Shown: piece after piece, positions 6,785 through 63,556 of the stretch
Numbering within the stretch: position 1 is the stretch's first letter
How the letters are laid out: the number at the start of each line of letters is the position of its first letter
DNA from: Planctomycetota bacterium
GTDB taxonomy: Bacteria > Planctomycetota > SZUA-567
DNA length: 64,000 bases
Assembly: GCA_020060765.1 (NCBI GenBank)
Contig: JAGUZQ010000032.1
Location: forward strand, 5,750 to 69,749
Direction of reading: 5' to 3'
Made by a program: the position numbers and the translations under genes
The notes under the pieces: model-generated
Told to the model about the DNA's origin: nothing
Databases searched by the model: none
What the model saw: the letters and a program-made list of their open reading frames with translations, nothing else

Positions 6785-10417
<3,633 letters not shown>

Positions 10418-22015: not shown

Positions 22016-22090
22016 GGATTTTCTTGACTCCGGTTTCGCCAGGTGTAGTATGATCTGTAACTTGTGCAGGCCTGTATCACTGGAGCGCGC

Positions 22091-22780
22091 ATGCCCTATC
22101 TCAGAATTTTCGACGTGGAAAAAGGCTCCTGCGAGTTCGAACTGAAAGCCGCGCGCGTGGTGATCGGGCGGCACGTTGATGCCGACATTGTGCTGAACAA
22201 TGTGACTGTCTCGCGCATTCACGCGCTCCTGCGCAAAGATACTGAAGGTTATGTCATCGAGGACGCCAACGCCCGCGCCGGAACCTATGTCAACCACGAA
22301 CGCGTGAATAAGCGCCTGCTCAAGCACGGCGACACTATCCAGATTTCGGTTTTTGTCATGGAGTACCGCACCGACGACCTGGAGCGGTTGAAAGAATTGA
22401 CCGGCGAGGACAGCGCCATCAACCGTTCGCTGAAAATGAATTTCAAGAAAGTTCCCGCCGCGTTGAATATCCGTTACCGCCTGCTTTCAGTCAAACCGCG
22501 CGATATCTTTTTCCAGGGCGATACGCTGGAGATTGGCGGCGGGGGAATGCTGGTGCCGGTCTGGGAGCCGTTGGAGGAAGGGGCGTGCCTGGAACTGGAA
22601 CTTGGCTGCCAGGGAGGCAAGCCGCGTTCGTTCATGGGCGAGGTGATCGCCGTCGTTACCGACCACAACAAGCCCGCGATGTGCATCAAACTCCACAAGA
22701 TGAAAACGGAACGTTACGATGAAATGATGCGCTGGGCGCGGCGGGGAAGCTGGGTGGAACTGTCGCGAATCAATGATTAA
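22091..22780 (+). CDS. FHA-domain protein with C-terminal PilZ-like domain
   Basis: FHA core VVIGRHVDADIVLNNVTVSRIHALL..GTYVNHERV. The C-terminal beta-rich domain with TLEIGGGGMLV resembles PilZ, but the RxxxR and DxSxxG motifs are not intact. Confidence 0.7.
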   Translation: MPYLRIFDVEKGSCEFELKAARVVIGRHVDADIVLNNVTVSRIHALLRKDTEGYVIEDANARAGTYVNHERVNKRLLKHGDTIQISVFVMEYRTDDLERLKELTGEDSAINRSLKMNFKKVPAALNIRYRLLSVKPRDIFFQGDTLEIGGGGMLVPVWEPLEEGACLELELGCQGGKPRSFMGEVIAVVTDHNKPAMCIKLHKMKTERYDEMMRWARRGSWVELSRIND

Positions 22781-22819
22781 TGTCATAAAGCGTCGCCTTT
22801 AATATAAAGGTCACTGCAT

Positions 22820-23659
22820 ATGAGAAAGTTTATTGCGATATGCCTGATGATGTTGTCATTGTTTTCTCTTTCGTGCCGACAGCAGACAAATGCTACATTG
22901 CCAAGGTCAGATTCCATAGCGATGGATTTGGTTAAAATCCGTGAGAAGCATCCCTCTTCAATTACGCTATATTTGCATTATTATTTCTTCGAGGGCAGTA
23001 AGGGAATCAAGGGAGATTGGTTTGAAAGATGGATTAAATTAGGCATGATGAATTTTAATACAGACAAACGTGCAGCATATAGCGTTGAGCAGATAATACA
23101 TATGCTGGGTAGTCCAACTTTTCAAGATCCTTTTGATAACCCGGAGCTGAGACCTTGTTTAGGATATACAGTGATGACTACCGAAGGTAAAAAAGTTGCT
23201 ATATTCTATTTCAACAAGGATGACCAATTGCAATCGGTTGCAATTGGCTCTGATCCATTTTCAATCCAGCTATGTAAGAATAAGGCAAACAAACAGGATG
23301 TTAATGATCCTTGGTTGTTTGAGATAGCGGCGATGTTGGAATGCCGTCCCGATACTTTACTAGCGTATATGGATTATCTCTGTTATGAAGCGACCAAGAA
23401 TGAGAAGGGTACACGTTTTTTAACCTGGGCAAAATCCATCGAGTCTGGTCAACATTCAAAGCATGAGTTTTATTGCGCGTCTCGCATAATGGAACTGATT
23501 GGAAATCCTGATAGCTGGGGATATGCCGATAACGAAAAACAAGAGCAGTGGTGGCAATATTTGGCTTATGAGGAGGGGATAAAGAAAGAGGTAATATTTT
23601 ATTTCGACGACTCAAAGTACGCGCTGTTTAAGGCTCTAAAAATCCAATCTACTGAGTGA
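22820..23659 (+). CDS. lipoprotein, no recognisable family (AT-rich gene)
   Basis: Lipobox LFSLSC after a hydrophobic leader. 279 aa, W/Y/K/N-rich. Composition is clearly AT-richer than the neighbours. Confidence 0.65.
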   Translation: MRKFIAICLMMLSLFSLSCRQQTNATLPRSDSIAMDLVKIREKHPSSITLYLHYYFFEGSKGIKGDWFERWIKLGMMNFNTDKRAAYSVEQIIHMLGSPTFQDPFDNPELRPCLGYTVMTTEGKKVAIFYFNKDDQLQSVAIGSDPFSIQLCKNKANKQDVNDPWLFEIAAMLECRPDTLLAYMDYLCYEATKNEKGTRFLTWAKSIESGQHSKHEFYCASRIMELIGNPDSWGYADNEKQEQWWQYLAYEEGIKKEVIFYFDDSKYALFKALKIQSTE

Positions 23660-23689
23660 AGTTGATTGTCCTGGAAAATATTAGGACGC

Positions 23690-24409
23690 TTATCTTATAT
23701 CACTATCACCAATCTGAATTGTTGTCTCCCACGGCCAGTAATCCGGCGTCGGCGCGACAAAGGTCAGCGGCTCCCGTTTAGTCGGATGTTCGACAGTCAG
23801 CGACAGCGCGTGCAGGGCAATGGCGCGTCCTTCAAGCAGCTTTTCCATTTTCGCGTTGTTGCCGCGATGATCGTATTTGAAATCTCCCACTATCGGTAGT
23901 CTCTCGTACGCCAGTTGCGCGCGAATCTGGTGCTTATAGCCGGTCAGCAGTTCAATTTCCAGTAATGACCTTCCATCCCGCGTGGCGAGAGTTCGGTAAA
24001 TCAGTTTTGCCTCTTTTGCACCCTCCCGATTATCGGGAAAAACCGCCGTCTTCAAACGCCGCTTGTCGCCTCGCAGGAAGTTGCACAATAGCTTTTCTTT
24101 TTCCGAAGAGATTCCCTCGACCACCGCGCGATAAATCTTTTTTGTCTTGCGGTCGCGGAACTGTTCCGACAAACGCGCCGCCGCCTTGTCGGTACGCGCC
24201 AACAACAGCACACCCGAAACCGGCCGGTCAAGGCGATGTACCGGCGCGCAGTAAACCGCGCCCGGTTTGTCGTACTTTTCCTTCAAATATTTCATGCAGA
24301 CCTCGACCAGCGGCTGATCGCCGGTGGCGTCACCCTGCACCAGTTCCCCCGCCGGTTTGAGAATGCAAAGCAGATGATTGTCTTCGTACAGCACTTCAGG
24401 CTGGGTCAT
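23690..24409 (-). CDS. RluA-family pseudouridine synthase
   Basis: Catalytic HRLDRPVSGVLLLART, plus GYKHQIR. Confidence 0.85.
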   Translation of the reverse strand: MTQPEVLYEDNHLLCILKPAGELVQGDATGDQPLVEVCMKYLKEKYDKPGAVYCAPVHRLDRPVSGVLLLARTDKAAARLSEQFRDRKTKKIYRAVVEGISSEKEKLLCNFLRGDKRRLKTAVFPDNREGAKEAKLIYRTLATRDGRSLLEIELLTGYKHQIRAQLAYERLPIVGDFKYDHRGNNAKMEKLLEGRAIALHALSLTVEHPTKREPLTFVAPTPDYWPWETTIQIGDSDIR

Positions 24410-24666: not shown

Positions 24667-26103
24667 ATGTACACGCTGCACGAGGAAACCAAGGAAATCA
24701 CCGATATCATTCTCGCCGCCCGCGACAAGGCGCGCGAGGAAGTGGGCAAGTCAGAACCGGAGGCGCAGTTCGCCAAGCCCATGACCTGGCCGGTGCAGTG
24801 CACCGTCGGCCCGGGGCTGGAAGGCGCTATCGCCTGCGAAAGCAAGGTCGGCTACGTCAACGGCTCCAAGGGCATGCTGGTCTATCGAGGATATGACATC
24901 TTCGACCTCTGCGCCTACTCCACTTTTGAGGAGGTCTCGTACCTGCTGGTGCACGGCGAGTTGCCCAACACTTCCCAACTGCGCGAATTTAACTGCAGCC
25001 TCGCCCGTTTCCGCTCCCTGCCCATGACTTTGCGGCGGCTGGGAGGTTTTCCGGTCGAGAACATCAATACCATGGCGGCCTTGCGTATCGGCACGATGAT
25101 GATGCGTCAGCGCCTGTCGTTCCGCGACAGCCAGAGCGCGCGCCCCGACCCCAACACCGCCATCAGCGCCGACGAGGACTCCATCCCGATGGAGACCAAG
25201 CCCATGGGCGAGCCGCACGCCATTTACGAATTCAAAAAGAAACAACTCGAGCGCCCCAAGGACGCGCGCGAAACCCAGGACGAATCCGAAAGCGTGCAGT
25301 CCTGTATGCACCTTATCTCCGGCATGGCCACCATCGCCGCGGGCGTTGCGCGGATGCGCGAGGAAAAAATGCCTATCGAGCCGGATACCGAATTAAGCCA
25401 CGCCGCCAACCTGCTGTACATGATGACCGGTCGTAAGCCCACACCGATCGAGGAAAGGGTAATGGATGTGGCGCTGATCCTCCACGCCGATCACGGCATG
25501 AACGCCAGCACCTTTGCTTCGATGGTGGTGGCCTCGACGCTGTCGGACATTTACTTCTCCGTCGGCGCGGGCATTGCCGCCTTGAACGGCCCGCTGCACG
25601 GCGGCGCCAACGAACAGGTACTGCGCCTCCTGCAGGAAATCGGGCCTGCCGCCAAAGTCAGCTCCTGGTTCGAGCAGGCAACGCGGGAGAAACGCAGGAT
25701 CATGGGCTTCGGGCACCGGGTATACAAGGCTTACGACCCCCGCGCGCGCATTCTCGGGCCGCTGGCGAAATTCCTCATCCAGGAAAAGAAGGAAATGCGC
25801 CCGTTATACAACACCGCGCGCGAACTGGAAAAGAAGGTCGTCACCACCCTTGGCGCGGAGAAGAAGATTTTCCCCAACGTCGATTTCTATTCGGGGATCG
25901 TCTACGCCGCCATGGGCATTGAGCCGGAACTGTTTACCCCGATTTTCGCCGTCAGCCGCGTGTCTGGCTGGTGCGCGCGCATTCTCGAATATCTGGACAA
26001 CAACCGGATTTTCCGCCCGCGCGCGATGTATATCGGCGAGTTCGACAAGGAATACGTCCCCATCGGCAAGCGGGGCGCGAAAAAGAACGCGCGGAAAAAA
26101 TAG
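24667..26103 (+). CDS. gltA: citrate synthase
   Basis: LILHADHGMNAST, GPLHGGAN, GFGHRVYKAYDPR, NVDFYSG. 478 aa, with extra N-terminal and internal segments. Confidence 0.9.
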   Translation: MYTLHEETKEITDIILAARDKAREEVGKSEPEAQFAKPMTWPVQCTVGPGLEGAIACESKVGYVNGSKGMLVYRGYDIFDLCAYSTFEEVSYLLVHGELPNTSQLREFNCSLARFRSLPMTLRRLGGFPVENINTMAALRIGTMMMRQRLSFRDSQSARPDPNTAISADEDSIPMETKPMGEPHAIYEFKKKQLERPKDARETQDESESVQSCMHLISGMATIAAGVARMREEKMPIEPDTELSHAANLLYMMTGRKPTPIEERVMDVALILHADHGMNASTFASMVVASTLSDIYFSVGAGIAALNGPLHGGANEQVLRLLQEIGPAAKVSSWFEQATREKRRIMGFGHRVYKAYDPRARILGPLAKFLIQEKKEMRPLYNTARELEKKVVTTLGAEKKIFPNVDFYSGIVYAAMGIEPELFTPIFAVSRVSGWCARILEYLDNNRIFRPRAMYIGEFDKEYVPIGKRGAKKNARKK

Positions 26104-26112
26104 GAGGGCATA

Positions 26113-26475
26113 GTGGCGAAGATACTGTTAGCCGACGATGACAGACGTATCTCTGATCTGCTGAAAAGAATTTTCCAGACCCAGGAAGTCATTCTGGTGC
26201 GAACATGGACCGAGGAATTGGCTGAACTGGAAAAGGATAAATTCGACTTGGTGGTGACAGATATCGTCATGCCTGGCTACAAGGACGTGCAGCAGAACGG
26301 CGGAGTTAAGGAAGTGCTGGTGAAGTACAATACTCCGGTGATCTTCATCTCCGGCTATGCGGAAAAGGAACTGAAGGATTTGCCAGACACCATGCGTTTT
26401 CTGAAAAAGCCTTTCAGCGTCAACCTCTTCCGCTCGTATGTCCGCAAGCTTCTGCTGACCGACGATATCTGCTGA
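26113..26475 (+). CDS. single-domain response regulator (CheY-like receiver)
   Basis: GTG after AGGAGG. ILLADDD, acceptor LVVTDIVMPG, and KKPF. Confidence 0.8.
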   Translation: MAKILLADDDRRISDLLKRIFQTQEVILVRTWTEELAELEKDKFDLVVTDIVMPGYKDVQQNGGVKEVLVKYNTPVIFISGYAEKELKDLPDTMRFLKKPFSVNLFRSYVRKLLLTDDIC

Positions 26476-26541: not shown

Positions 26542-29076
26542 CTATGCCTCATCGTCCCACGGCACATCCTCGCGCTCTTTTTCGTCATCGCGTAAACCTG
26601 CCATACCGCCGTCGTCGTCATCGTCGAACATCAGGCTGGACTGACCGCCGCAGAACTTGGCGCAGAATTCCTCCATCGTCATCATGATCTCGCGCGCCTT
26701 GCCTTCGCGGAAAGGCCCCAGCAGCCCCGCCGCCGCGAGCTGGTCGATAATCCGGCTGGCGCGGCCGTAACCGACGCCGAATTTGCGCTGCAACAGCGAG
26801 ACCGAGCCGCGCCCGCTTTCGATAATCGCCATTCCCGCCTCGCCGAACAGTTCGTCGAAATCCTTGATATCGCCGCCCGCGCCGCCGATAACCGGCCCGT
26901 CCAGTTCCTGATGATATTCCGGCGCCATCTGCGCTTTGACGAAATCCACTACCCGGAATAATTCTTCGTCGGAGACAAACACGCCTTGCGCGCGAGTCAA
27001 CTTGCCCACACCCGGCGGCAGGAACAGCATGTCGCCCGCACCCAGCAAGGTCTCCGCGCCGTTCTGGTCGAGAATGGTGCGCGAGTCTACCCGGCTGGCC
27101 ACCTGAAACGCGATGCGGCAAGGCATGTTCGCTTTAATGAGACCAGTGATAACGTCCACCGACGGACGCTGGGTCGCCAGCACCACGTGAATGCCGACCG
27201 CACGGCTCTTGGCCGCCAGGCGCGTGATATGCTGCTCCACGTCCTTGCCCGCCACCAGCATCAGGTCGGCCAGTTCGTCAATGACGATCACGATGTAGGG
27301 CAGGCTCTTGGGGAACAGCTCCAACTCCTCCTTGCCGTAATTGCCTGCCAGCCGCTTTTCGATTTCCGCCTCGCCCAACGCGTTGAACTTGACGATGTTG
27401 TTGACGCTGACCATGGAAAGCTGTTCGTAACGCTCGTCCATTTTCTGGCACGCCCATTCGAGCACGCCAACCGCTTTTTTCATATCGGTAATGACGGGGC
27501 TTAAGAGATGCGGGATTTCCTTGAACCGCGACAGCTCCACCACCTTCGGGTCGATCATGAGCAGTTTCGCTTCGCTGGGCTTGCAGCACATCATCACCGA
27601 CAGGATCAGTGAATTGATGCAAACCGACTTGCCGCTGCCGGTCGCGCCCGCGATCAGCATGTGCGGCATCTTGGCCAGATCGGCTATGATCGGCGTGCCG
27701 GAAACATCCTTGCCTAAACAAACCGGAATCTGTTGCAGGCGATTATTGCGCTTGACCGCTTCAACAACTTCACGCAGCGACACCACGTTTTTCTCTATAT
27801 TCGGTATCTCGATACCGATAGTGTCTTTACCGGGGATAGGCGCAATAATGCGGACGTTGGCCGCTTTCAAGGCCATGGAAATATTGTCGCCCAGGGAAAT
27901 GACCTTGCTCAGGCGGATTCCCGGTGCCAGCATCATTTCGAACAAAGTTACTCGCGGGCCGCACTCGATCTGCACTACCTTGCCTTCGATCTTGAATTCG
28001 GCCAGCGTCTTTTCCAGAATCTTCGCTCGTTTTTCCAGACTCGCCGCGCCCTCGCCCAGGCCTTCCTGCGCCTCATCCAGCAGATACATCGGCGGCAACT
28101 GATAGTCGCGCTCCGCATCCACGCTGTTGGCCACGACCTTGTCGATCTTCTCGGGACGCTCCGCTCTCCGCACCGGAGGTTTCTTTTCCACCACCGGTAT
28201 CGGTTCGGAAACAGGCTCTGGCGTCGGCTCGCCGTAGGGGACGAATTCCGCGTTTTCGCCTTTTTCGGTTTCAGGCACTTCCGGGACAACCGGCTCCGGT
28301 TTTTCCTCCACCACCGCTGCCTCGACTTCGAACGCTTCAGATATTTCCTCTTCCCGCTCCTCGCGGATTTTTTCCCGCACCGGACGCACGCTCTCCCGTT
28401 CCTTGGGGGGATTAAGCAAAGCCACTGCGCGGCTGGCGCTGCCCGCCACTACCGATACGACTTTCGGTTTTACATGTTCCGCCGCCGCGCTGGTAGCAGA
28501 GACGAAAATTCCGCCCACCGTTTTCAACCCATCGCCAACTATGCGTCCCCATTCAAACAACGCCTCTCCCACCATCAGCACCCCGCCAAACAGCAGCAAC
28601 CCGCCCGCGATAATCGCCAGCCCGAAGTTGCCCAGATACAGCCGCGCCGGAGGACTGACGATGTAAGAAAGCAGTCCGCAGGATTCGACCGCGCTGGCGC
28701 CGAAAACCGAATCCACCAGCAACGGCAACGCGATCAGCGCCACTACTCCACCCAACACCTGCGGCCAGGCGCCGAAAAACCGGTTGTTGCGGATAATAAA
28801 TATTCCCCACGCACACAGCAGCAGCGACAACGCATAGGAAGCGACACCACCCAGCGTCAGCCGCACGCCAAACGCAGCCCACGCGCCCAACAAGCCGGTC
28901 GCGCAGTCGCTCGCCGTTGTCGCCGGATCGAGAGTAGTGTCGGCAGTGAAAAACGAAATCCCCAGGAACATGCCCAGGCCGATAATGAACAGCCCGGTAA
29001 AAAAGGTGAGCATCACGACAAACCCGCTGGGTCTGGCCGGAATCTCGATTTCCACCGGTACTTTTCTACGCGCCAT
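26542..29076 (-). CDS. ftsK: DNA translocase FtsK
   Basis: N-terminal TM segments, a P/E-rich linker, Walker A GATGSGKS, Walker B IVIVIDELADL and a gamma winged-helix (SVSLLQRKFGVGYGRASRIIDQL). Confidence 0.92.
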   Translation of the reverse strand: MARRKVPVEIEIPARPSGFVVMLTFFTGLFIIGLGMFLGISFFTADTTLDPATTASDCATGLLGAWAAFGVRLTLGGVASYALSLLLCAWGIFIIRNNRFFGAWPQVLGGVVALIALPLLVDSVFGASAVESCGLLSYIVSPPARLYLGNFGLAIIAGGLLLFGGVLMVGEALFEWGRIVGDGLKTVGGIFVSATSAAAEHVKPKVVSVVAGSASRAVALLNPPKERESVRPVREKIREEREEEISEAFEVEAAVVEEKPEPVVPEVPETEKGENAEFVPYGEPTPEPVSEPIPVVEKKPPVRRAERPEKIDKVVANSVDAERDYQLPPMYLLDEAQEGLGEGAASLEKRAKILEKTLAEFKIEGKVVQIECGPRVTLFEMMLAPGIRLSKVISLGDNISMALKAANVRIIAPIPGKDTIGIEIPNIEKNVVSLREVVEAVKRNNRLQQIPVCLGKDVSGTPIIADLAKMPHMLIAGATGSGKSVCINSLILSVMMCCKPSEAKLLMIDPKVVELSRFKEIPHLLSPVITDMKKAVGVLEWACQKMDERYEQLSMVSVNNIVKFNALGEAEIEKRLAGNYGKEELELFPKSLPYIVIVIDELADLMLVAGKDVEQHITRLAAKSRAVGIHVVLATQRPSVDVITGLIKANMPCRIAFQVASRVDSRTILDQNGAETLLGAGDMLFLPPGVGKLTRAQGVFVSDEELFRVVDFVKAQMAPEYHQELDGPVIGGAGGDIKDFDELFGEAGMAIIESGRGSVSLLQRKFGVGYGRASRIIDQLAAAGLLGPFREGKAREIMMTMEEFCAKFCGGQSSLMFDDDDDGGMAGLRDDEKEREDVPWDDEA

Positions 29077-30997: not shown

Positions 30998-31558
30998 CTA
31001 CGTTGTTGCCCCGATAATTCTCCGCAACCCTTGAATGAAGATATCAAAGCTTTTCGATCGCTGGTTATCGAGATCAAGATAAGGGGAAATTCGGCGGGAA
31101 CCATCAATCTTCTGATAATCAGGCACCATTTTTCGCAGATAACCGGAAGGGCAAGTAATCGAATCCGGCGCGCGACATGGATTCTTCATTTGCTGTCGCG
31201 CAAGGTTATTCAAGTTCAAGCCTTTTTCCACTGCCGCAAGGTCGGCGAGATACCAACTCTCCAACTCCCTGCAGACAATGCGTACTAAACTGGCGTCTTT
31301 TCCCGCTTCGCCGCATTTCTTTTTCAACGCAGCCTTGATCTTTTTGCAATCCCCCGCATCCTGATCCCGCATCACCACGAACAAGGCATCTGGCGCATTG
31401 TATCCTCGCATGCGCCGCACCATCTGTCTTTCCAAATCCTGCTTCCCTTCAAAAACAAGATACCGGGGTGTAAAATTATCAGGGAGCAAACGTGGCAATA
31501 CTCCTTTGAGCATTTCCGCGGCGGACGGTTCTTCGAGCAGGAAAACTATTTCCCTCAT
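30998..31558 (-). CDS. DUF4276-like protein (TOPRIM-like E...DxD arrangement)
   Basis: ATGA overlap with the upstream ATPase. MREIVFLLEEPS, FEGK, MRDQDAGD, CRELESWYLAD. 186 aa. Family assignment is from memory of the pattern. Confidence 0.7.
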   Translation of the reverse strand: MREIVFLLEEPSAAEMLKGVLPRLLPDNFTPRYLVFEGKQDLERQMVRRMRGYNAPDALFVVMRDQDAGDCKKIKAALKKKCGEAGKDASLVRIVCRELESWYLADLAAVEKGLNLNNLARQQMKNPCRAPDSITCPSGYLRKMVPDYQKIDGSRRISPYLDLDNQRSKSFDIFIQGLRRIIGATT

Positions 31559-32742
31559 CGCGGATCGGCTCCTTCAAAGAATCCCTGTTTCCAGAGATAT
31601 CCCATCTGGTCGCTTTCCGCCATGTAGTTGGCTATTTGCGCATTGTCCTGCGCCCGTTTTATTACGGTATAACCGTCTTGCTTGACCAGCCAATAAACTT
31701 CTTCCAATTGCATCGCATTCAGAAAATCGGGAGAATGGGTCGAGACAAAAACCTGCCCCCCGCGATTTGCATATTCCCTGAACTCCTCCGCCAGTTCCCA
31801 TAGAAGCTTGGGATAAAGCTGGTTTTCCGGCTCTTCCACGCATAACAGCGGATGAGTAGTAGGATCGTATAGCAGCGTCAGATAGGCAAACATCTTGATC
31901 GTTCCGTCGGAAACATGTCTGGCAAGAAAAGAGTCTTTGAAAGCGCCGTCCTGAAACCTAAGCAGTATACGACCTTCGTCCGTCGTATTGGCTTCCACGC
32001 GGGAAATTCCCGGCACCCGCCGAGCCAGTTTTTCAATGATCCTGTTAAATACGTCACGGTGACGCTTGTACAGAAACTCCGTCACTAAAGCCAGATTCTC
32101 TCCTTCGCGGGATAGGTGTTCGGCATATCCCACCTCCTGCTCGGGTCGCGCTTTTTGAATATGGAAATCAGATACATGCCAGTTTTCTATCAACTCCCCC
32201 AACGCCATTACAGCCGGGAATTTCTTGAACTGCGCCAAGCCCTTAATCGCCAGTACGTCAGAGGATTTAAGCGTTTGTTCCTCCCGTTTGAGTTCTGATT
32301 CGTCCTCCACCTTATCCGGCTCGTTGGTGACCGCCGTACCCTTTCCCTTTGCAAAGTCGAGGAAGTGCCAAGGCTGTCCCTTGCTGCCCCGGCGGTATCT
32401 AAGAATTTCACGTTCAACAATAGGATTGCCATTTTCCTCGTTTATAGCCAGAAAATATGTTATAAGCGGTGAAGTGTTTTTTTCACGAAATTTAAGCTCG
32501 ATTTCGATAGAACCTTCGGCATTCCGGCTGCGTACTTCCTGGAAGCCCCGACCGCCGCCGAGTTTGGTCAGGGCAACATGGACATTTTCGGTTAAGGCGT
32601 CTTTGAGAAAACCGAAAACACTGAATAGAGTGGATTTCCCCGTACCATTCGCGCCAACCATGACACACATGCGCGGAATCTCGCGCATTTCGGCATCCTT
32701 GAACGCCTTGAAATTTTTCAGCCTGATATACTCGATATTCAT
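31555..32742 (-). CDS. ABC-type AAA ATPase (AAA_21/AAA_15-like, SMC/RecF-like head)
   Basis: ATG at 32742 after GGGAG. Walker A GANGTGKST, signature-like VSDGTIKMF, Walker B LLCVEEPENQLYP, H-loop VSTHSP. Confidence 0.85.
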   Translation of the reverse strand: MNIEYIRLKNFKAFKDAEMREIPRMCVMVGANGTGKSTLFSVFGFLKDALTENVHVALTKLGGGRGFQEVRSRNAEGSIEIELKFREKNTSPLITYFLAINEENGNPIVEREILRYRRGSKGQPWHFLDFAKGKGTAVTNEPDKVEDESELKREEQTLKSSDVLAIKGLAQFKKFPAVMALGELIENWHVSDFHIQKARPEQEVGYAEHLSREGENLALVTEFLYKRHRDVFNRIIEKLARRVPGISRVEANTTDEGRILLRFQDGAFKDSFLARHVSDGTIKMFAYLTLLYDPTTHPLLCVEEPENQLYPKLLWELAEEFREYANRGGQVFVSTHSPDFLNAMQLEEVYWLVKQDGYTVIKRAQDNAQIANYMAESDQMGYLWKQGFFEGADPR

Positions 32743-32816
32743 TGCAAAACTCCCGGACGTCAACCCTTGTCGTCAAGCGAAACCGTGAAGAGCGTATTTT
32801 TTCTGTTCCGTGAGCT

Positions 32817-56005: not shown

Positions 56006-56284
56006 GCGTTTTCCTCCGGAAGATAATGACATGCCTTTTCGCGCCTCAGACTCGGCGGGAGGATATTGTAACTTTTGACCGTTTTGTCGCAAGCAAAAAG
56101 CATCTGGCGAAGGACAGGCGTTTTCCGATGACAGAAAAAAACAGGCGTCGAGCGGTGCTAGAGGGCGTAAGTATTATGTAACGCGGGGTGCGTGAAAACG
56201 CTTGCGCCCAGACAGAGATTATGGATAACTGAACCATCTTCAAGGAATTTGGGGTTCATCTCTATTTTTCACCCGGAGGAACTT

Positions 56285-59200
56285 ATGAACAGGAATTGGC
56301 GTTTGGCGATGTTGGCGGTTTTCGGCTTCTGGCTGGCGGCTTTGTCTGTCCGCGCACAGGAGACTCCTGCTGATAATTCAGGCAGTCTCCTTGACCGTAA
56401 GGAAGCGCTGGCGGCGGCGGCGGAAGTAACCCGGGAAAAATATCCCAACGCCGACGACGTCCTGGTTGACGATTACACCCGCACCGTCTTCCAAACCGAC
56501 GGCACCTATGAGTCGTGGAACGATTGCTATCAGAAAATCCTGACCGAGAAAGGCCGACGCGACGCCCAGACCCTGTCGTTTTATTTCACCCTGCCCTATA
56601 CGACGGAAAAAGACATCGGCGTCACCCTGCTGGAAATCGTCAAACCAAACGGCGATCTGGTCAAACTGGGCGCGGAAGATATGAAGCGTCTGTGCAAGGT
56701 CATGATCGATCCCAACAGCATGAAAAGCAATATCTATAATCCCAACAGCAAGATTCTGAAAGTCGGCGTGCCTGCCGTCGCGGTCGGCGACGTGGTGCAT
56801 TACATCTATTTCCGCCGCGTGGTGCAGCCGCGCGTGAAAAATTCCTTCAGCGATCTGCAACTGCTGGAATACACCAGTCCCATCCGGCGCATGGTCTACG
56901 AAATCCTGGGGCCGAATGAATTGCCGCTCAAAGGGATTGCGCTTAAAGACGAAATCAAGGGCACTGTTGTCAGCGCCAGCGGGGAAAAGGACGGTTTGCG
57001 CCATTACCGTTGGGAAGCTCGGGATGTGCCGCGCATGTTCGAGGAACCTGACATGCCGAATCTGGTAAACGTTGTCCAACGTCTTCTGGTCAGTACGGAA
57101 GGCGATTGGAAAGACGTTTCTCGCTGGTATTGGAAACTCTCGGAACCGCACTTCCTGCTTACTCCCGAAATAGAAACCAAAACCGCGGAACTGGTGAACG
57201 GCCTGCAGAAAGACAGCGAAAAAATGACCGCTATCTTCCAATGGGTTTCCCAGCAGATCCGCTACGCCGGTATCACGGTGGAAAAGGATTCCCCCGGTTA
57301 CGAGCCGCATGACGTGGGGATGACTTTCAGCAAGCGTTACGGCGTCTGCCGCGACAAGGCGGCGCTGCTGGTGGCGATGCTGCGCGCGGCGGGTTTCAAG
57401 GCCTTTCCCGTACTGATTCATAACGGCCCGAAAAAAGACGTCGAGGTGGCGATGCCTTATTTCAATCACGCCATCACCGCCGTTGAGCTGCCCGGCGGGG
57501 AATACCGGTTGATGGACTCCACTGACGAAAACACGCGCAATCTCCTGCCGGAATACCTGAACGACAAAAGCTATCTCGTTGCCCGCCCGGAAGGCGAAAC
57601 CCTGCGCACCACGCCTATCATTCCCGCCACGGAAAACCTGATGCGGATCGAAACCGAAGGCAAGGTCGATGCGCAGGGAAAGCTTTCCGGCAAAACCGTG
57701 CTGTCTTTCGACGGCCAGAATGACAATTCCTATCGCGGCTTTTTCGCCCAGTCCCGCCCGGACAAGCGCCGCCGTTATTTTGAAGGAATTGTGAAATTCG
57801 CGGTGCCGGGGGCAAAACTGACCGGTTGTGAAATCCTGCCCGAAGATATGCAGAATGTAAAAGCACCGTTGGAAGTGCGTCTGTTTTTTCAAGCCGACTC
57901 CGTACTGGTCTGCGGGGAAGACGGCACGAAAATGTTGTCGTTGCCTTCGTTTGGATCGCGTATCGGCGCGGTAAATTGGATGCTGCGCAAACTCGGTCTG
58001 GCCGAACGCCGCTATCCGCTGGAAACAGATACCGCTTGCGGGGTACGGGAAAAAATCTCGCTCCGGCTTGATCCTGCCCTGGGCGCAGTCGTAGCGATGC
58101 CGGATTATCCCAAACTGGAATCAGATAATCTGCTCTGGCAACGCAAAACCAGGCAGGAAGGCGAATATCTCATCAGTGAAGCGGAATTCCTGCTGAAGGC
58201 GGTCAAGTTTGCGCCGAAGGATTATCTCGCGCTCAAGGATGCGGTCAAGGAAATCGAATACCAGTCTCGGCGGATGCCAGTCTTGCGCGCTGATGCGGGT
58301 GAGATGGCAGCGAGCGATGCCGATGTGCTGCTGCTGTCGGAAAAAGTCAGCTATGCGCTTAAGGATGTTCACAACTGGAGTGAAACCCGTGCGATCAAAA
58401 AGAAAATCCTGACCTATAAAGGCAAAAAAGACCACAGCCGCATCAGCCTGGAATATAATTCCGCCTGGGAAAAAATCTATATCGAAAAAGCCCAGGTTAC
58501 CGATGCAAAAGGCAACGTCAAGACTATCAGCAACGAGGAAGTAAATGTCATGGACGCGCCCTGGGTGGGAAGCGCGCCGCGCTATCCGGCTTCGCGCACG
58601 CTGGTGGCTCTGCTGCCAGGGGTGGAAATCGGCAGCGTGGTGGAATACGTCATCCGCCGCGAATGCAGTAACCGCCCGTTTTTCGCGGCGATGCACTCTT
58701 TCCGTTTTACTTACCCCGCGCTGGAAACAGAAGTTGTCGTCTCCGCGCCGGAGAATCTGGATTATATCGAATATCTTCGCGACGAAGGAAAAACCGTCTC
58801 CGTGGAATCAAAGAAGGAAAACGGTCTTAGTATACGCACCTGGAAAGCTTTGAACCAACCCGGCATCAACGACGAAGGCGCTTCTCCTCCCTGGTGGAGT
58901 TGCAACCCCACGCTGTTTCTGTCCTGCGGCGATTGGCGTGGCTACTCCCGCGAACTGCTGGGCTATCTGGTGAAAGCCGCTTCCCACCAGGAACTCGCCA
59001 CCAATCTGGGGCGCAAGCTGGCGTCTGAAAACCGCGATCTGGAAAAACGATTGATTGCGATCCGCGATTACGTCGCCCGCGAAATCCGTCTGGCCGGGCC
59101 TCTGCTGAACCGCGCTCCGCTCGATGTGATTTCCCCCGCCGATGTGACTTTGCATGACGGTTATGGCAACAACGTCGATCAGGCGGTGCTGCTTTATGCC

Positions 59201-60127
59201 CTGCTGCGGGCGGCGGGATTCCGGGCGGAGTTTGTGGCCGAAGGTTTGTGGGAACGTGCACCGGAACTGGCGAAACCCTTTGTCGTCTGCCCTGATTCCC
59301 TTTGGTTATCGGGGTTGCTGGTGAGGGTCGAACTTTCGCGCGGTCGTGAGGTTTACCTTAACAATACCAGCATTTACGCCGCGCTGGGAGCTACTCCCGC
59401 CGAGGGCAGACCCGGCGTGGTTCTGGATACCGGTAAGGTCGAACGCATCCTCTCCAGCGCCGGGCCGGTCTCGCGTAGACAAGCAGAGTATCTGATTGAC
59501 CTCGATTCTTCCGGCGACGCTCATATCACTCGTAAGCGTTCTTTCTACGGACAAGACTATGAAAAGAATAATCGCCTTTTTGCGGAAATGACGCCTGAGG
59601 AACAGAAGCGTTACCACCAGGAAGCGGTCGCCGCCATCTCCCAATCAGCCGAACCCGACGGCGACATCAAGGTGGATTTCTCCCATTATCCCGGCACCGA
59701 GGAGCTGTCGGTCAAAGTCAAACGCTTTGCCATCAGCGACGGAAATTATCTTCATTTCCAACTGCCGGAATCGCTGGAAAACCTGTTCCGCCTCTGGGCC
59801 GACAGCCGCCAGACGCCCTACCTTATCGCCGAAACCGAAGACGTGCGGATAGATGTGACTGTCAACCTGCCGGAAGGATATCGTTGCCTGGCCATGCCCA
59901 CGGAACTGCATCTGAAACTGCCGCAGGGAATTGGTGAAGTGGGAATCGTTACCAAGATGACCGGCGAAACCGGCCAAGGCAAAACTGTCAAAACCGCCTA
60001 CGCCGCTTTGGTTCCGCCGCAGGTGGTGGAGACACGAGACTATGCCAAGTTGCTGGATCTTTGTCAGTCGTTGACACACCCGGAAACGCGGACGTTTCTG
60101 TTGGAGAAAATCGTGGAACCTCGTTGA
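56285..60127 (+). CDS. secreted DUF3857 / transglutaminase-like / DUF3858 protein, internally duplicated
   Basis: ATG after GGAGGA and leader LAMLAVFGFWLAALSVRA. The first transglutaminase core is RYGVCRDKAALLVAMLRAAGFKAFPVL. The second copy, GYGNNVDQAVLLYALLRAAGFRAEFV, lacks the Cys. Confidence 0.8.
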   Translation: MNRNWRLAMLAVFGFWLAALSVRAQETPADNSGSLLDRKEALAAAAEVTREKYPNADDVLVDDYTRTVFQTDGTYESWNDCYQKILTEKGRRDAQTLSFYFTLPYTTEKDIGVTLLEIVKPNGDLVKLGAEDMKRLCKVMIDPNSMKSNIYNPNSKILKVGVPAVAVGDVVHYIYFRRVVQPRVKNSFSDLQLLEYTSPIRRMVYEILGPNELPLKGIALKDEIKGTVVSASGEKDGLRHYRWEARDVPRMFEEPDMPNLVNVVQRLLVSTEGDWKDVSRWYWKLSEPHFLLTPEIETKTAELVNGLQKDSEKMTAIFQWVSQQIRYAGITVEKDSPGYEPHDVGMTFSKRYGVCRDKAALLVAMLRAAGFKAFPVLIHNGPKKDVEVAMPYFNHAITAVELPGGEYRLMDSTDENTRNLLPEYLNDKSYLVARPEGETLRTTPIIPATENLMRIETEGKVDAQGKLSGKTVLSFDGQNDNSYRGFFAQSRPDKRRRYFEGIVKFAVPGAKLTGCEILPEDMQNVKAPLEVRLFFQADSVLVCGEDGTKMLSLPSFGSRIGAVNWMLRKLGLAERRYPLETDTACGVREKISLRLDPALGAVVAMPDYPKLESDNLLWQRKTRQEGEYLISEAEFLLKAVKFAPKDYLALKDAVKEIEYQSRRMPVLRADAGEMAASDADVLLLSEKVSYALKDVHNWSETRAIKKKILTYKGKKDHSRISLEYNSAWEKIYIEKAQVTDAKGNVKTISNEEVNVMDAPWVGSAPRYPASRTLVALLPGVEIGSVVEYVIRRECSNRPFFAAMHSFRFTYPALETEVVVSAPENLDYIEYLRDEGKTVSVESKKENGLSIRTWKALNQPGINDEGASPPWWSCNPTLFLSCGDWRGYSRELLGYLVKAASHQELATNLGRKLASENRDLEKRLIAIRDYVAREIRLAGPLLNRAPLDVISPADVTLHDGYGNNVDQAVLLYALLRAAGFRAEFVAEGLWERAPELAKPFVVCPDSLWLSGLLVRVELSRGREVYLNNTSIYAALGATPAEGRPGVVLDTGKVERILSSAGPVSRRQAEYLIDLDSSGDAHITRKRSFYGQDYEKNNRLFAEMTPEEQKRYHQEAVAAISQSAEPDGDIKVDFSHYPGTEELSVKVKRFAISDGNYLHFQLPESLENLFRLWADSRQTPYLIAETEDVRIDVTVNLPEGYRCLAMPTELHLKLPQGIGEVGIVTKMTGETGQGKTVKTAYAALVPPQVVETRDYAKLLDLCQSLTHPETRTFLLEKIVEPR

Positions 60128-61243
60128 TCAGAAATGCAATTCGCCCAGGCGGTTGATAGCGGCGGGGGAAAAGCCATAGGCTTCGAAAATTTCCAGATTA
60201 ACGTCTTGCAGCAGGCGGTTGCGCTGACCGCGCGCGATAGGACTGGCGGGATTGGCGCCCAGCCTGCCCAGTTCCCGTGCCGCCGCCGACAGTCTGTCCT
60301 GCAAACTCTTGGACGGCAGTATCACCGGCACCGCTTCCAGATCGACGCGCCGCAGATATGCGCCCGCGGCGGCGGAAGTGATGGGGCGGATACGGTTGAA
60401 ATAGAAATCCATCAAACGGCTGTTAAGCAGGCAGGCGAGATAACCGCATTGCAAGCCGCGCGCGGGTATGATCGAATACAAATCTGATGAAATCGGCGAA
60501 CGTGTGGTATCAACCGCAGCGATTATCGGCGGCGCGGTGCGATGCAACACCACTTTTTCCGGCTGGTCATATTCCTCCAGCGACGGCACGCGGAACATGC
60601 CCCGCTTGTCGAAGAAAAGATATTGCTGTGATTCGGTCACGCGGAAAGCCTGCACGTTTTCCCCGTGCAACGTCGCCAGCCATTCCAACCCCGGCGAAGC
60701 AGCGCGGCGGTAATGCGAGCCACGCACTGAGACTCCGCTGAAAATCTCCGCCATGTCGCCCAGCTTGCCACCCTTTTCCCTGATTTCACTATACGCCTCT
60801 TTCAATTCTTCCGGCACCCCGCCAAGATTGTCGCCAGATTCTGAAGATTCGCGATTTACCAGGTTGGCGATTTTCGATAGTAGCATCTCCACCCGGAAAG
60901 GCTTGGCCAGATAAGCGTCTGCCCCGGCGCTGAAAATTCTTTCCGCCACGGCAAGATTGCCGGAAGTTGACAGCACGAGGATTGGGATGTGCAAAGTGCT
61001 GTCGGCGGAACGGAACCGGCGGCAGAATTCTTCCGATTCCACTTCACCGTTCAAATCCAGCACTACTGCGTCGGGCTGGCGATAGCGCGCGGCGCGCAAG
61101 CCGTCCTCACTGTTTTCAGCTTCAAAGACGGTGTAGCCGCTCCGACCGAAACTCTGTCGCAGGGCTTTGCGCAATTTTTCGTGTGAATCAACCAGCAACA
61201 CGCTTGCCACCATTCGTCTCTCCCGAACCATAAGATTGTCCAC
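60128..61243 (-). CDS. response-regulator receiver fused to a TaqI_C-like DNA target-recognition domain
   Basis: REC: VLLVDS, acceptor AVVLDLNG, LVLST, AKPF. C-terminal half: LGDMAEIFSGVSVRG..YSIIP..GYLACLLNSRLMDFYFN..LEAVPVILP..IFEAYGFSP, which is the pattern of type IIG/BREX methylase specificity domains. Confidence 0.8.
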   Translation of the reverse strand: MDNLMVRERRMVASVLLVDSHEKLRKALRQSFGRSGYTVFEAENSEDGLRAARYRQPDAVVLDLNGEVESEEFCRRFRSADSTLHIPILVLSTSGNLAVAERIFSAGADAYLAKPFRVEMLLSKIANLVNRESSESGDNLGGVPEELKEAYSEIREKGGKLGDMAEIFSGVSVRGSHYRRAASPGLEWLATLHGENVQAFRVTESQQYLFFDKRGMFRVPSLEEYDQPEKVVLHRTAPPIIAAVDTTRSPISSDLYSIIPARGLQCGYLACLLNSRLMDFYFNRIRPITSAAAGAYLRRVDLEAVPVILPSKSLQDRLSAAARELGRLGANPASPIARGQRNRLLQDVNLEIFEAYGFSPAAINRLGELHF

Positions 61244-61306
61244 TTATATTATCGGTCACACTTAACAGATTCTTCAGGTTTTGTCCGATAAGACAGTTTC
61301 TTTCTC

Positions 61307-61342
61307 TTGACAAAGGTCTAATAGATTGTACACTTAAAGTGT
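61307..61342 (+). promoter_or_regulatory. promoter plus palindromic operator of the vapBC-like operon
   Basis: TTGACA (61307-61312), 16-nt spacer, TACACT (61329-61334). The perfect palindrome ACACTT-A-AAGTGT (61330-61342) overlaps the -10. Confidence 0.45.
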
Positions 61343-61358
61343 TCACTTGGAGAAAACA

Positions 61359-61595
61359 ATGAAAGCATCAATCTTGGATTTGCGCCGGAAAATGGGAGAT
61401 GTGCTTCGCTCCCTGGAGCGGGGGGAGCGAGTAACTATTCTTCATAGAGGCAAGGAAAAAGGAATTCTGATTCCTGCCACAGAAAAGAAATCTGTTTCTG
61501 TGCGGTCTCATGCGGCTTTTGGGATGTGGGCTGAACGAGATGATCTTTCCGATGTGGCTGCATATGTGCGATCATTGCGCCAAAGGCGTTTCTAA
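61359..61595 (+). CDS. type II antitoxin (Phd/YefM-like)
   Basis: GGAG RBS. MKASILDLRRKMGDVLRSLERGERVTILHRGKEKGILIP is typical of a Phd/YefM N-terminus. TAATG overlap with the toxin gene. Confidence 0.75.
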   Translation: MKASILDLRRKMGDVLRSLERGERVTILHRGKEKGILIPATEKKSVSVRSHAAFGMWAERDDLSDVAAYVRSLRQRRF

Positions 61596-61972
61596 TGCTG
61601 TTCGATACTGACATTCTTATCTGGTGCCTGCGCGGCAACGAAAATGCGGCGAAAGTTATCAATGATTTTGATACTCGCGCGCTTTCTATTGTAACTTATA
61701 TGGAACTTCTGCAAGGTGCGCGAGATAAGAGGGAAATGAAAACTCTCCGTGGTTTTCTTTCCGAATTGGGTTTTACTGTCTTTCCCTTGACAGAGAATAT
61801 CAGTCACCGCGCCTCCATTTATCTGGAAGAATATTGTCTTAAAATTGATTTGGGTATTGCCGACGCGCTGATCGCTGCCACGGCTGTTGAAAACGGGCTG
61901 ATCCTTTTTACCGGCAACGAAAAGCATTATAAACTGATAAATGACCTGGAAGTTAAAATCTTCAAACCGTGA
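61595..61972 (+). CDS. vapC: PIN-domain toxin VapC
   Basis: MLFDTDILIW (first acidic residue), later E and D (ADALIAATA) and a C-terminal N/D. 125 aa. Confidence 0.85.
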   Translation: MLFDTDILIWCLRGNENAAKVINDFDTRALSIVTYMELLQGARDKREMKTLRGFLSELGFTVFPLTENISHRASIYLEEYCLKIDLGIADALIAATAVENGLILFTGNEKHYKLINDLEVKIFKP

Positions 61973-61974
61973 AT

Positions 61975-63021
61975 TTATGACAGGTGCTCGCGGATATAGC
62001 GCGCGCGCACCAAGTCGCGTTCTTCCGGCGGGAGTTCCTTGCCTTCCAGTTTCTGTAGGTGGGCTGGTTGGATATAAAGAAAAATCGTATTCAGAGTTTT
62101 CAGTTCCAGTTCCGGCAGCATTCCCAATTGCGCCCCCAGCCGCACGGAAGAAAGGTGGCGCATGGTCTCGTCGGAACTGATCAGGCGTGCGTTTTTCAAG
62201 GTCGAGTAGGCGCGCCAGACCTTGTCTTCCAATTTCATCGGTTCCCGCCCCAGCAGGCGTTCGCGCGCTTTTTTCTCGTAATTGACAATACCTTCTATCA
62301 CCGCCTTCAAATCGGCGAGAATGTCTTCCTCGCTGCGGCCGATGGTGATCTGGTTGGAAATCTGGTAAAATTCCCCGTGCGCCTCGGTGCCTTCCCCATA
62401 CAACCCGCGCACCGCCAGCCGCAAGTCGTGCACCGCGTTAAACGCTTTTTCAATATGCCCTGACATCACCAGCGCGGGCAGATGCACCATCACCGACACC
62501 CTCATGCCAGTGCCGACGTTGGTGGGGCAGGCGGTGAGATAACCAAATTCTTCGTCAAAGGCGTAATCCAGTTTTTTCGCCAGTTCGTCATCGATGGAAC
62601 TGAGCTGCTCGTAGGCGTCTTCCAGTTGCAAGCCGCTGCGCAGCGATTGCAACCGCAGGTGGTCTTCCTCGTTGACCATGATGGAAAGGGTTTCCGGTTC
62701 GTTAACCACTACTCCGCGTGCGCCGGCCGATTCTTCCTGTTCGCGGCTGATCAGGTGCCGCTCCAACAGCAGATGCCGCTCCAGTTCGGTCAGGCTTTCC
62801 AGATCGAACCAACACAATTCCCGAGCGTAGGAAGTCGAGAGAACCGCTTCCTTGACAAGGTCAGCGACGTTTTCCTTTTCTTCGGAAGAAATGTGGCTTT
62901 CGAAGCGGAATGAAAACAGGTTCCGCGCCAGCCGCACCCGCGAGGATATTACTATTCCGCATTCCGGGCCGTCGGCCCTGAGCCATTCGCCTGAGCTTTT
63001 TACCAATTCCTCAAATTTCAT
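61975..63021 (-). CDS. mcsB: protein arginine kinase (ATP:guanido phosphotransferase)
   Basis: LTACPTNVGTGMRVSVMVHLPAL and EGTEAHGEFYQISNQ. Confidence 0.9.
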   Translation of the reverse strand: MKFEELVKSSGEWLRADGPECGIVISSRVRLARNLFSFRFESHISSEEKENVADLVKEAVLSTSYARELCWFDLESLTELERHLLLERHLISREQEESAGARGVVVNEPETLSIMVNEEDHLRLQSLRSGLQLEDAYEQLSSIDDELAKKLDYAFDEEFGYLTACPTNVGTGMRVSVMVHLPALVMSGHIEKAFNAVHDLRLAVRGLYGEGTEAHGEFYQISNQITIGRSEEDILADLKAVIEGIVNYEKKARERLLGREPMKLEDKVWRAYSTLKNARLISSDETMRHLSSVRLGAQLGMLPELELKTLNTIFLYIQPAHLQKLEGKELPPEERDLVRARYIREHLS

Positions 63022-63031
63022 GAAGTTTGCC

Positions 63032-63556
63032 TTATTTTTCAGCTTTGATTTTTTCGCTTAGTTCACTCAAACGGTCGCGCAGTTCCGCCGCCAGTTCATA
63101 GGCTTCGTTATCGATGGCGTTGCGCAGCTCCCGGCGACAGACAATTATTTCATTTCTCAGCTTGGGATCGATGCCCTTGCCGGGCGGAGTCTTCCCGGCG
63201 TGATGCGCCGCGCCAGCGTGAATGTCAGCCAGCAGTCCTCTCAACCTTGGCCGGAAAGAATCGTAATCGCCGGGACAGCCAAAACGCCCTCCTTTGCGGA
63301 ATTCGCGCCAGGAAATGCCGCAGGAATTGCAGACTATGTCTTCTTCGCGCGGTTTCTTTTCCTTTTTCGGTTCGTTTTTCACCACGCTGGAAAAAATCTG
63401 CGGCAGATTCACTGACAGCGCCTGGTTGGTGGAAAATCCTTTGGTCTGCGCGCACTGGTCGCACATATGCACTTCTTTTTTGACATTGTTGTGTATGTCG
63501 GTCAAGTGAATCGTAGCCTGACGCTTTTTGCAGAATTCACAGATGTACATGGTCAA
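63032..63556 (-). CDS. mcsA: McsA-like protein (zinc-finger N-terminus, UVR motif)
   Basis: CEFC..CDQC and CNSC..C pairs. C-terminal UVR helix ELRNAIDNEAYELAAELRDRL. Directly upstream of mcsB. Confidence 0.8.
   Translation of the reverse strand: MTMYICEFCKKRQATIHLTDIHNNVKKEVHMCDQCAQTKGFSTNQALSVNLPQIFSSVVKNEPKKEKKPREEDIVCNSCGISWREFRKGGRFGCPGDYDSFRPRLRGLLADIHAGAAHHAGKTPPGKGIDPKLRNEIIVCRRELRNAIDNEAYELAAELRDRLSELSEKIKAEK

Follow-up and report, generated by a model that had tools for sequence, protein, structure and literature searches.

We focus here on a gene of a Planctomycetota bacterium whose product joins two known types of domain in an order that is, as far as our search of the literature goes, without description as a receiver-TaqI_C fusion. 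The gene lies on the minus strand at 60128..61213 of the 64,000-nucleotide stretch analysed (the window; contig JAGUZQ010000032.1, positions 5,750 to 69,749), and it encodes 361 residues, with a response-regulator receiver domain (REC) at the N-terminus and a target recognition domain (TRD) of the TaqI_C type at the C-terminus. The REC-TRD family to which it belongs is rare and undescribed, and what is new about it is a response-regulator output class built on known domain types. As to function, our judgement leans slightly towards an atypical, orphan response-regulator-like protein, in which an exapted TRD serves as the DNA-reading output, expression is of the sigma-28 type and the receiver works largely independently of phosphorylation. 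That the TRD binds DNA, that the sigma factor is of the sigma-28 class and that phosphorylation has been lost are inferences from the comparisons set out below.

First of all, the C-terminal half is a complete specificity module. Pfam matches TaqI_C (PF12950) at 48.3 bits against a cut-off of 26.5 (E 1.5e-12), over residues 191-306 in the numbering of the maximal 371-residue open reading frame (ORF), that is, residues 181-296 of the 361-residue protein (E 1.4e-12; 60326..60673, minus strand), whose numbering is used here unless otherwise stated. The whole module spans residues 135-358 (60140..60811, minus strand) and consists of an N-terminal helix, a beta-rich recognition core, a PVILPSKSLQ junction and three C-terminal helices, followed in the alignments by a near-invariant end, L-H-F-COOH (60131..60139, minus strand). 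A first AlphaFold2 model, of the full-length protein with a 7-sequence alignment, was moderate (predicted local distance difference test, pLDDT, 70.6), with a patchy TRD and Foldseek matches dominated by receivers; it was superseded by a model of the C-domain only, built on an alignment (A5) of 39 family members, which reaches a pLDDT of 94.8 and a predicted template-modelling score (pTM) of 0.91 and contains the helix, the beta-rich core and the three C-terminal helices. In Foldseek searches of the PDB, this second model has among its top matches the TRD of CamA (E 5e-11; query-normalised template-modelling score, TMq, 0.74 over about 270 columns), and it also matches the TRDs of M.BseCI (TMq 0.70) and M.TaqI (E about 1e-7, 20-22% identity, TMq 0.47-0.49), HsdS (3OKG; TMq 0.52) and Esub1 (TMq 0.55; target-normalised score, TMt, 0.65). 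The last of these is an orphan HsdS-like single TRD from Streptococcus pyogenes (PDB 8VSQ/8VSR) that stands outside restriction-modification (R-M) systems and for which HsdM binding was not shown (PMC11754733). Among PDB sequences there are, in addition, weak HsdS profile matches (E 0.0075) whose centre is the TRD-to-helix junction, LEAVPVILPSKSLQ being aligned there with lPlPPleEQ. PADLOC matched its methyltransferase models of types II and IIG weakly, and in their C-terminal parts only.

The N-terminal half is just as clearly a receiver. Response_reg (PF00072) is matched at 62.6 bits against a cut-off of 30.2 (E 4.7e-17; residues 15-125 in 371-residue numbering), and Pfam, Foldseek and the alignment with CheY together place the domain at residues 5-115 (62.7 bits with the 361-residue protein; 60869..61201, minus strand). 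The receiver half of the full-length model matches the receivers of KdpE, RR468 and PhoP (TMt about 0.92, root-mean-square deviation 1-2 Å), and NCBIfam and PDB sequence searches match the receiver only, with KdpE, PhoB and RpaA closest. We also considered a degenerate methyltransferase Rossmann fold for this domain and rejected it, the domain being a bona fide receiver by sequence and by structure. Between the two halves runs a variable linker at residues 116-133 (60815..60868, minus strand), of low model confidence (pLDDT below 50 at residues 122-131 of the full-length model) and with zero conserved columns. A sequence-only reading of this DNA had proposed just such a receiver joined to a TaqI_C-type specificity domain. 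Both assignments are borne out: the sequence blocks it quoted are all in the translation, the TaqI_C match lies above the Pfam cut-off and the C-domain model superposes on the TRDs of CamA, M.BseCI and M.TaqI. The two outcomes that it had named as fatal to its proposal, a C-terminal half with no TaqI_C match or with an unrelated fold, were looked for, and a complete TaqI_C/CamA-type module was found instead.

How large this family is could only be seen by exhaustive searching. Word-indexed homology searches of 5.8 billion clusters returned 7-12 relatives only, and it was an exhaustive phmmer search with the C-terminal half that revealed the family, with 182 matches, 40 of them at E<1e-10, followed by a sharp drop in score to about 1e-8. 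Clusters are counted here at 50% identity, and the family thus amounts to about 40 of them. All 40 encode proteins of about 350-380 residues with the TRD running from about residue 135 to the end, and Pfam finds TaqI_C in 44 of 44 family members and a recognisable Response_reg in 30 of the 44. The more distant C-domain matches (n=46) carry Eco57I (27), N6_Mtase (23) and MmeI_Mtase (17) domains; since the distant relatives are thus methyltransferase fusions, the domain descends from methyltransferase TRDs. Every named genome with a family member is a metagenome-assembled genome of Planctomycetota, and a scan of metagenome contigs with alignment A1 produced one true relative, a duplicate of locus L005, together with receiver-only matches.

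Within the family it is the TRD that is held constant. Pairs of members are on average 41% identical in the TRD core as against 23% in REC, and in 809 of 820 pairs it is the TRD that has changed less, which makes it the constrained and presumably functional core. Judged by these identities, the family TRD is under purifying selection, whereas the TRDs of R-M systems diversify. The end of the protein is conserved as well: F361 is invariant in alignment A1 and kept in at least 80% of the family alignment A3, and an L[H/Y/C]F terminus is common to the family and to a more distant third clade. This third clade (P0088, P0095 and P0128; alignment A6) consists of proteins of about 365 residues with TaqI_C and a C-terminal (E/K)L(Y/H)F; its N-terminal domain, without a Pfam match, is possibly a very degenerate receiver, and the context of P0088 is an uninformative 2.6-kb contig.

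The receiver, by comparison, has lost much of its active site. Aligned with CheY, the protein from the window retains D9 (CheY D12), the acceptor D53 (D57), S82/T83 (T87) and K104 (K109). The second metal-binding Asp, CheY D13, is absent and replaced by Ser10, and the beta3-alpha3 loop, shorter by one residue, is missing its usual Pro. Among the 41 family members with the N-domain, the full catalytic quintet occurs in two only (P0004 and P0053), the CheY-D13 column is Asp in 9, and the acceptor column holds D in 25, N in 9, A in 6 and K in 1. The receiver of the window's clade is thus degenerate, and phosphorylation control of the window protein is doubtful.

More distant relatives show what an undegenerate version of this architecture looks like. 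P0083, P0084, P0086 and P0127, found among the distant matches, combine strong receivers (81-105 bits) with TaqI_C, and in P0084, P0086 and P0127 the DD/D/T/K residues are intact. The gene for P0086 (on three contigs) lies directly 3' of a PAS-HisKA-HATPase_c kinase gene with a 4-bp overlap, in a locus with an HDOD-HD protein 5' of the kinase and secretin and PilM genes 3' of the regulator; the P0084 gene is likewise overlapped by a PAS-HisKA-HATPase_c kinase gene. P0083, which has Glu at the acceptor position and no equivalent of D13, is an orphan adjoining a methyl-accepting chemotaxis protein (MCP) and a Cache protein. Comparison of these loci shows that intact phospho-sites accompany adjacent kinases and degenerate sites accompany orphan genes. 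Since canonical sister proteins are coupled to kinases through overlapping stop and start codons, REC-TRD is a genuine two-component architecture. Of the suggestion in the sequence-only reading that a TRD had been recruited as the output of a two-component regulator, it is thus the architecture that stands, through P0086 and P0084, while control by phosphorylation does not carry over well to the window protein itself.

No enzyme accompanies the domain. The window protein has neither a [DNS]PP[YFW] motif nor a Pfam methyltransferase domain, and phmmer searches of all window ORFs with 8 kinase and 21 methyltransferase-TRD queries found no methyltransferase or histidine kinase, matching only the REC-TRD ORF (through its REC or its TRD), a single-domain receiver at about 26104-26475 and two AraC-type ORFs. 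Pfam scans of 30 of the larger window ORFs, likewise, found no methyltransferase and no histidine kinase among what is ordinary chromosomal content (PGM/PMM, DUF3857-transglutaminase, PIN, McsB/McsA, citrate synthase, FtsK, TPR, ABC transporters, sulfatase and others). Beyond the window, no DNA methyltransferase or nuclease was found within flanks of up to 10 kb at about 14 loci in three clades, several of them on short contigs; the sister-clade loci of P0083, P0084 and P0086 hold no DNA methyltransferase, and a histidine kinase is adjacent at none of the family loci examined. The earlier statements that the receiver-TRD protein comes with no methyltransferase or nuclease and that the window encodes no cognate histidine kinase were therefore sound. 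Genomic context was examined for the window and for L001, L003, L004, L005, L007-L010, L013 and L030; all-versus-all ORF BLAST over nine loci found no shared neighbour except generic sulfatase, ABC and kinase families. Operon-partner hypotheses for the window's clade were rejected on this result, and the REC-TRD gene in this clade is a stand-alone unit. Motility-type neighbours do occur at some family loci, namely CheX and a single REC next to P0196 and an MCP near P0007.

The strongest clue to regulation lies in front of the gene. Upstream regions of the family loci are otherwise only 26-29% identical, yet CCGATAA stands on the gene strand in all ten loci with upstream sequence, 14-149 nt before the probable start codon; this 7-mer occurs in 1.5% of random 160-nt stretches of the same loci, giving P of about 7e-19 for ten out of ten. 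In the window, the 9-mer CCGATAATA occurs a single time in 64 kb (61247-61255, minus strand; 0.3 expected), and it is found once, at the upstream position, in each of seven distinct family loci. Anchored on this core, the ten loci give the consensus T[G/C]AAGA-N15/16-cG[G/A]CCGATAAT. The published consensus for sigma-28 (FliA/WhiG) is TAAA at -35 and GCCGATAA at -10, and the fliC promoter of P. aeruginosa has TCTAAAG (-36..-30) and GCCGATAA (-15..-8), with the GC as an extended -10 (PMC8325347, PMC12784957). A published criterion accepts these two boxes with no more than two mismatches in total less than 200 bp from the start codon (PMC8325347), and all ten loci fall within it, the -10 box with no or one mismatch (exact GCCGATAA in five of the ten) and the -35 box with exactly one, always at base 2. 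The element in the window is thus a putative sigma-28-type promoter, TGAAGAATCTGTTAAGTGTGACCGATAA (61249..61276, minus strand), with the -35 box TGAA(GA) at 61276-61271 and the -10 box ACCGATAA at 61256-61249; read as TGAA-N16-ACCGATAA, it has one mismatch in each box, and 36 nt separate the last -10 base from the ATG. For comparison we took a 15-nt spacer and a start site 7-8 nt past the -10 box as canonical for sigma-28. Transcription from the window promoter is predicted to start at about 61240-61243, leaving a 5' untranslated region (UTR) of about 30 nt with a Shine-Dalgarno sequence. A generic sigma-70/terminator scan gave matches at background level.

Several observations on promoters and start codons at other loci belong here. 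In L001 and L007 the ATG follows closely on the CCGATAA core (14 nt on from the first base of the core and 7 nt from the last), and so short a distance suggests that these mRNAs may be leaderless. In L013 (10001-10040) the annotated start of P0196 (374 residues) falls within the conserved element itself, and translation probably begins instead at an ATG about 39 nt further 3' (MNEIVLLV...), preceded by GGAGAG. In L029, TAAA-N16-GTCGATAG lies at 9893-9920 on the plus strand, about 80 nt 5' of P0083 (10001-11062), with a perfect -35 and two mismatches in the -10, which hints that a sigma-28-type promoter may reach beyond the Planctomycetota family to the sister clade.

Taken together, these data suggest the following scheme. 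The receiver would have taken the place of the N-terminal catalytic domain of a CamA/BseCI/TaqI-like methyltransferase, and the retained TRD would act as a sequence-specific DNA-binding head, making the protein a transcription or DNA-site factor and not a modification enzyme. In the sister clade, a histidine kinase would switch this DNA-binding output by phosphorylation. In the Planctomycetota clade of the window, the receiver would have lost most of its phosphoryl chemistry and would serve dimerisation or interaction. Its regulation would have shifted to the level of expression, by way of a sigma-28/FliA-class factor, so that production of the protein would accompany the late flagellar/motility programme. 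The chemosensory and appendage neighbours (CheX with a single REC, MCPs, secretin/PilM) agree loosely with such a link to motility. The wider claim, namely that REC-TRD proteins are an unrecognised class of sequence-specific DNA-binding regulators made from an R-M specificity domain, with a canonical, kinase-switched branch and an orphan, phosphorylation-independent Planctomycetota branch belonging to the sigma-28 regulon and specific to the motile (swarmer) cell type, is one we put forward tentatively, as a possibility with the balance still against it.

A number of points weigh against this scheme. First, that a TaqI_C-type TRD binds DNA when isolated from any methyltransferase domain is something we infer, and even for the orphan Esub1 the function is unknown and DNA binding presumed (PMC11754733). 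Second, the sigma-28 assignment relies on resemblance to a consensus and on positional conservation; the spacer is 16 nt (seven loci) or 17 nt (three loci) and not the canonical 15, the -35 box carries a mismatch at every family locus, and the two-mismatch criterion alone gives about 25 background matches per 128 kb. The criterion being this unspecific, the weight is carried by the conserved position, orientation and spacing. Furthermore, the Pfam scans of 30 of the larger window ORFs found neither fliA nor a flagellar gene. Finally, the tally of receiver residues depends on an alignment of divergent sequences, and some residual phosphorylation of the window protein is possible, because the acceptor Asp, the Ser/Thr and the Lys remain.

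We thus have to weigh the scheme against other explanations. One of them keeps the fold and changes the ligand: the TRD may have been exapted to bind a protein, an RNA or a small molecule, the whole protein acting, much as CheY does, as an adaptor for motility or chemosensing. A sigma-28-type promoter and chemotaxis-type neighbours at several loci would suit such an adaptor, as would the invariant C-terminal L-H-F, which resembles a docking peptide, and the family-specific conserved loop G-x-x-(P)R-x4-RR-x-A-x-P-x3-W (with R164, R169, R170 and W178), which stands where methyltransferase-fused TRDs have a GxxTG loop. However, the characterised members of this fold (CamA, BseCI, TaqI and HsdS) all bind DNA, and the sister clade is laid out as classical operons of histidine kinase and response regulator of the transcription-factor type. 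The net charge of the TRD (+4.2) is also positive and near that of the methyltransferase-fused TRDs (+5.5), a measure which fails, on the other hand, to separate DNA-binding from non-DNA-binding readings. We regard a non-DNA ligand as unlikely.

Another explanation concerns the upstream element, which could be, instead of or besides a sigma-28 promoter, an autoregulatory operator read by the TRD itself and overlapping a sigma-70-type promoter (-35 T[G/C]AAGA, 17-bp spacer, -10 GATAAT). The element is unique to the REC-TRD gene in 165 kb of family loci, the 17-bp spacing to GATAAT fits sigma-70 geometry and response-regulator genes are often autoregulated; moreover, CCGATA-A-TATCGG, a 6-1-6 palindrome, occurs in L009, and in the window a degenerate copy lies inverted at a distance of 36 nt. 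What speaks for a promoter instead is that the conserved G[G/A]CC before GATAA is accounted for by sigma-28 recognition, as the extended -10 of GCCGATAA, and has no role in sigma-70 promoters, that second half-sites are not conserved between loci, and that a constant distance between two blocks is what a promoter is expected to show. An operator thus seems distinctly unlikely. The degenerate copy itself, GTCCGATAAGAC (61283..61294, plus strand), faces the vapB-like gene and, joined with TAAC-N17, makes up a weaker sigma-28-like box, TAAC-N17-TCCGATAA (61263-61291, plus strand), in front of the divergent pair of an 82-residue ORF and a PIN gene. The -35 region of this box overlaps that of the REC-TRD promoter on the opposite strand; the copy is not conserved at the other family loci and is of uncertain significance. 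The generic scan also marks a sigma-70-like TTGACA-16-TACACT at 61307-61334.

The protein could, furthermore, be a trans-acting specificity subunit, whose C-terminal helices and L-H-F tail would bind an N6-adenine methyltransferase or restriction enzyme that lacks a TRD and comes from another locus; by lending it sequence specificity, the subunit would provide signal- or cell-type-controlled methylation. Its TRD with the C-terminal helical module is of the type that packs against the methyltransferase domain in CamA, BseCI, TaqI and HsdS, and the conserved C-terminal helices with the terminal L-H-F would fit a protein-docking surface. Specificity and modification genes of R-M systems are, however, normally co-operonic, and no such partner is adjacent here: neither the flanks recovered at about 14 loci in three clades nor the 64-kb window contain a methyltransferase or nuclease gene. 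The TRD core is conserved (41% against 23% in REC), unlike the diversifying TRDs of R-M systems, and the family is restricted to a lineage and not patchily distributed. We consider this explanation improbable, and the suggestion in the sequence-only reading that the protein partners, under control of phosphorylation, a methylase or restriction enzyme from another locus finds no support in these data. Last, a functionless, decaying R-M or type IIG remnant fused by chance to a receiver would account for the missing enzyme domain and the degenerate receiver, and it is effectively refuted by ORFs that remain intact and constant in length across about 40 divergent clusters, by strong conservation of the TRD and of the cis promoter element and by a compact, high-confidence fold.

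Returning to the gene itself, the maximal ORF (60128..61243, minus strand) counts 371 residues from a GTG, and the true start is likely the ATG at 61213-61211 (residue 11 of this ORF), giving 361 residues and a stop at 60130-60128. The public database copy P0001, of 361 residues and 100% identical to the window protein, and all homologues begin at this ATG, which has a GGGAGAG Shine-Dalgarno sequence (61218-61224) 5' of it. The in-frame extension from GTG 61243 (61214..61243, minus strand) is present in none of the homologues in the alignments and is most likely 5' UTR. At its 3' end the REC-TRD gene (60128-61213) converges with a gene for a 1311-residue DUF3857/transglutaminase-like protein (56192-60127, plus strand) with zero intergenic bases, which leaves no space for a terminator. 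On the other side, the sequence-only reading had described a divergent vapBC module, of which the PIN half is confirmed by Pfam (61595-61972, plus strand); the vapB half is plausible only, the 82-residue ORF that precedes it (61347-61595, plus strand) having no Pfam match. Beyond the PIN gene lies a pair encoding an McsB-like protein arginine kinase (ATP-gua_Ptrans, E 7.6e-71) and an McsA-like UVR-motif protein (61975-63556, minus strand), a module best known from stress control in Firmicutes. An Rfam scan of 59900-62100 found no RNA family match.

The 3' side of the gene looks different in some relatives. In three independent ones, P0003, P0006 and P0004 (the last from two separate assemblies), only 3-87 bp of contig follow the REC-TRD stop (gene end/contig end: L001 11083/11086; L002 3538/3579; L004/L006 3910/3920; L005/L015 4012/4099; one of these contigs is 36 kb), which suggests a repeat or strain-variable region immediately 3' of the gene in those genomes. 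This differs from the window, where the gene abuts the convergent one. Elsewhere in the window, the stand-alone receiver (26113-26475, plus strand; 120 residues, Response_reg E 4.5e-10) is a second orphan receiver in a stretch without a kinase, directly 3' of citrate synthase (24667-26103) and adjoining FtsK (26542-29076, minus strand). An AAA_21/AAA_15 ATPase (402 residues) and an overlapping 186-residue ORF (30998-32763, minus strand) fall in a dip of G+C (0.49-0.51 at 30-34 kb, about 0.57 elsewhere) and look like a small defence or mobile module; a second dip (0.48, 22001-24000) holds an FHA-domain protein (22064-22780) and an unannotated 279-residue ORF (22820-23659) with a signal-peptide-like N-terminus.

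To our knowledge, TRDs have been known as sequence readers of methyltransferases and restriction enzymes and not as stand-alone regulators, and we know of essentially no cell-cycle or cell-type regulators described for Planctomycetota. A receiver-TRD fusion in kinase-coupled operons would give two-component systems an output domain that is new to them and, if the scheme is true, would show that cells can domesticate the specificity modules of R-M systems as DNA-binding factors of their own. Since the rules by which TRDs recognise DNA are comparatively well studied structurally, REC-TRD proteins could also be attractive as programmable DNA readers. The conserved sigma-28-type promoter offers a concrete, testable link of the family to the flagellated stage of Planctomycetota, and the element supplies a candidate sigma-28 consensus for the phylum.

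Compared with known systems, the closest in fold are CamA, M.BseCI and M.TaqI, whose TRDs share it along all 225 residues of the module, flanking helices included, and the motifs EKV(V/I)L-R, AA-D and LLNS+L-FY of methyltransferase-fused TaqI_C TRDs are present in the window's family too. These enzymes, on the other hand, have a methyltransferase domain where the REC-TRD protein has a receiver and a GxxTG loop where the family has its Arg-rich one, and the REC-TRD sequence is conserved and not specificity-variable. Type I HsdS and half-size HsdS likewise share the TRD fold and, weakly, the junction, lP(l/i)PP..EQ aligning with LEAVPVILPSKSLQ; compared with type I HsdS, the REC-TRD protein has one TRD and not two, no Methylase_S Pfam match and no adjacent hsdM/hsdR. 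The defining catalytic and partner features were looked for and not found, which sets the protein apart from methyltransferases, type IIG enzymes, PglX and HsdS alike. The promoter shares with those of sigma-28 (FliA/WhiG) the -10 [G/A]CCGATAA and the -35 T[G/C]AA(G) at a fixed distance, less than 150 nt from the start codon, and departs from them in its spacer (16-17 nt as against 15) and in the second base of TAAA. With regulators of the OmpR/PhoB, NarL and similar types, atypical and pseudo-receiver ones included, the REC-TRD proteins have in common an N-terminal REC, a C-terminal output and, in the sister clade, coupling to a kinase, whereas their output is not a winged helix, a helix-turn-helix or any described output domain, and the window's clade is mostly without the catalytic residues and has no partner kinase gene. 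The closest precedent for an orphan TRD, and the only comparable case that we found, is Esub1, which likewise carries a TRD plus helices away from any R-M system. Esub1, a member of the HsdS/Methylase_S branch without a receiver, dimerises via a single long helix, whereas in the REC-TRD protein, which is of the TaqI_C branch, the helices form a bundle within one molecule.

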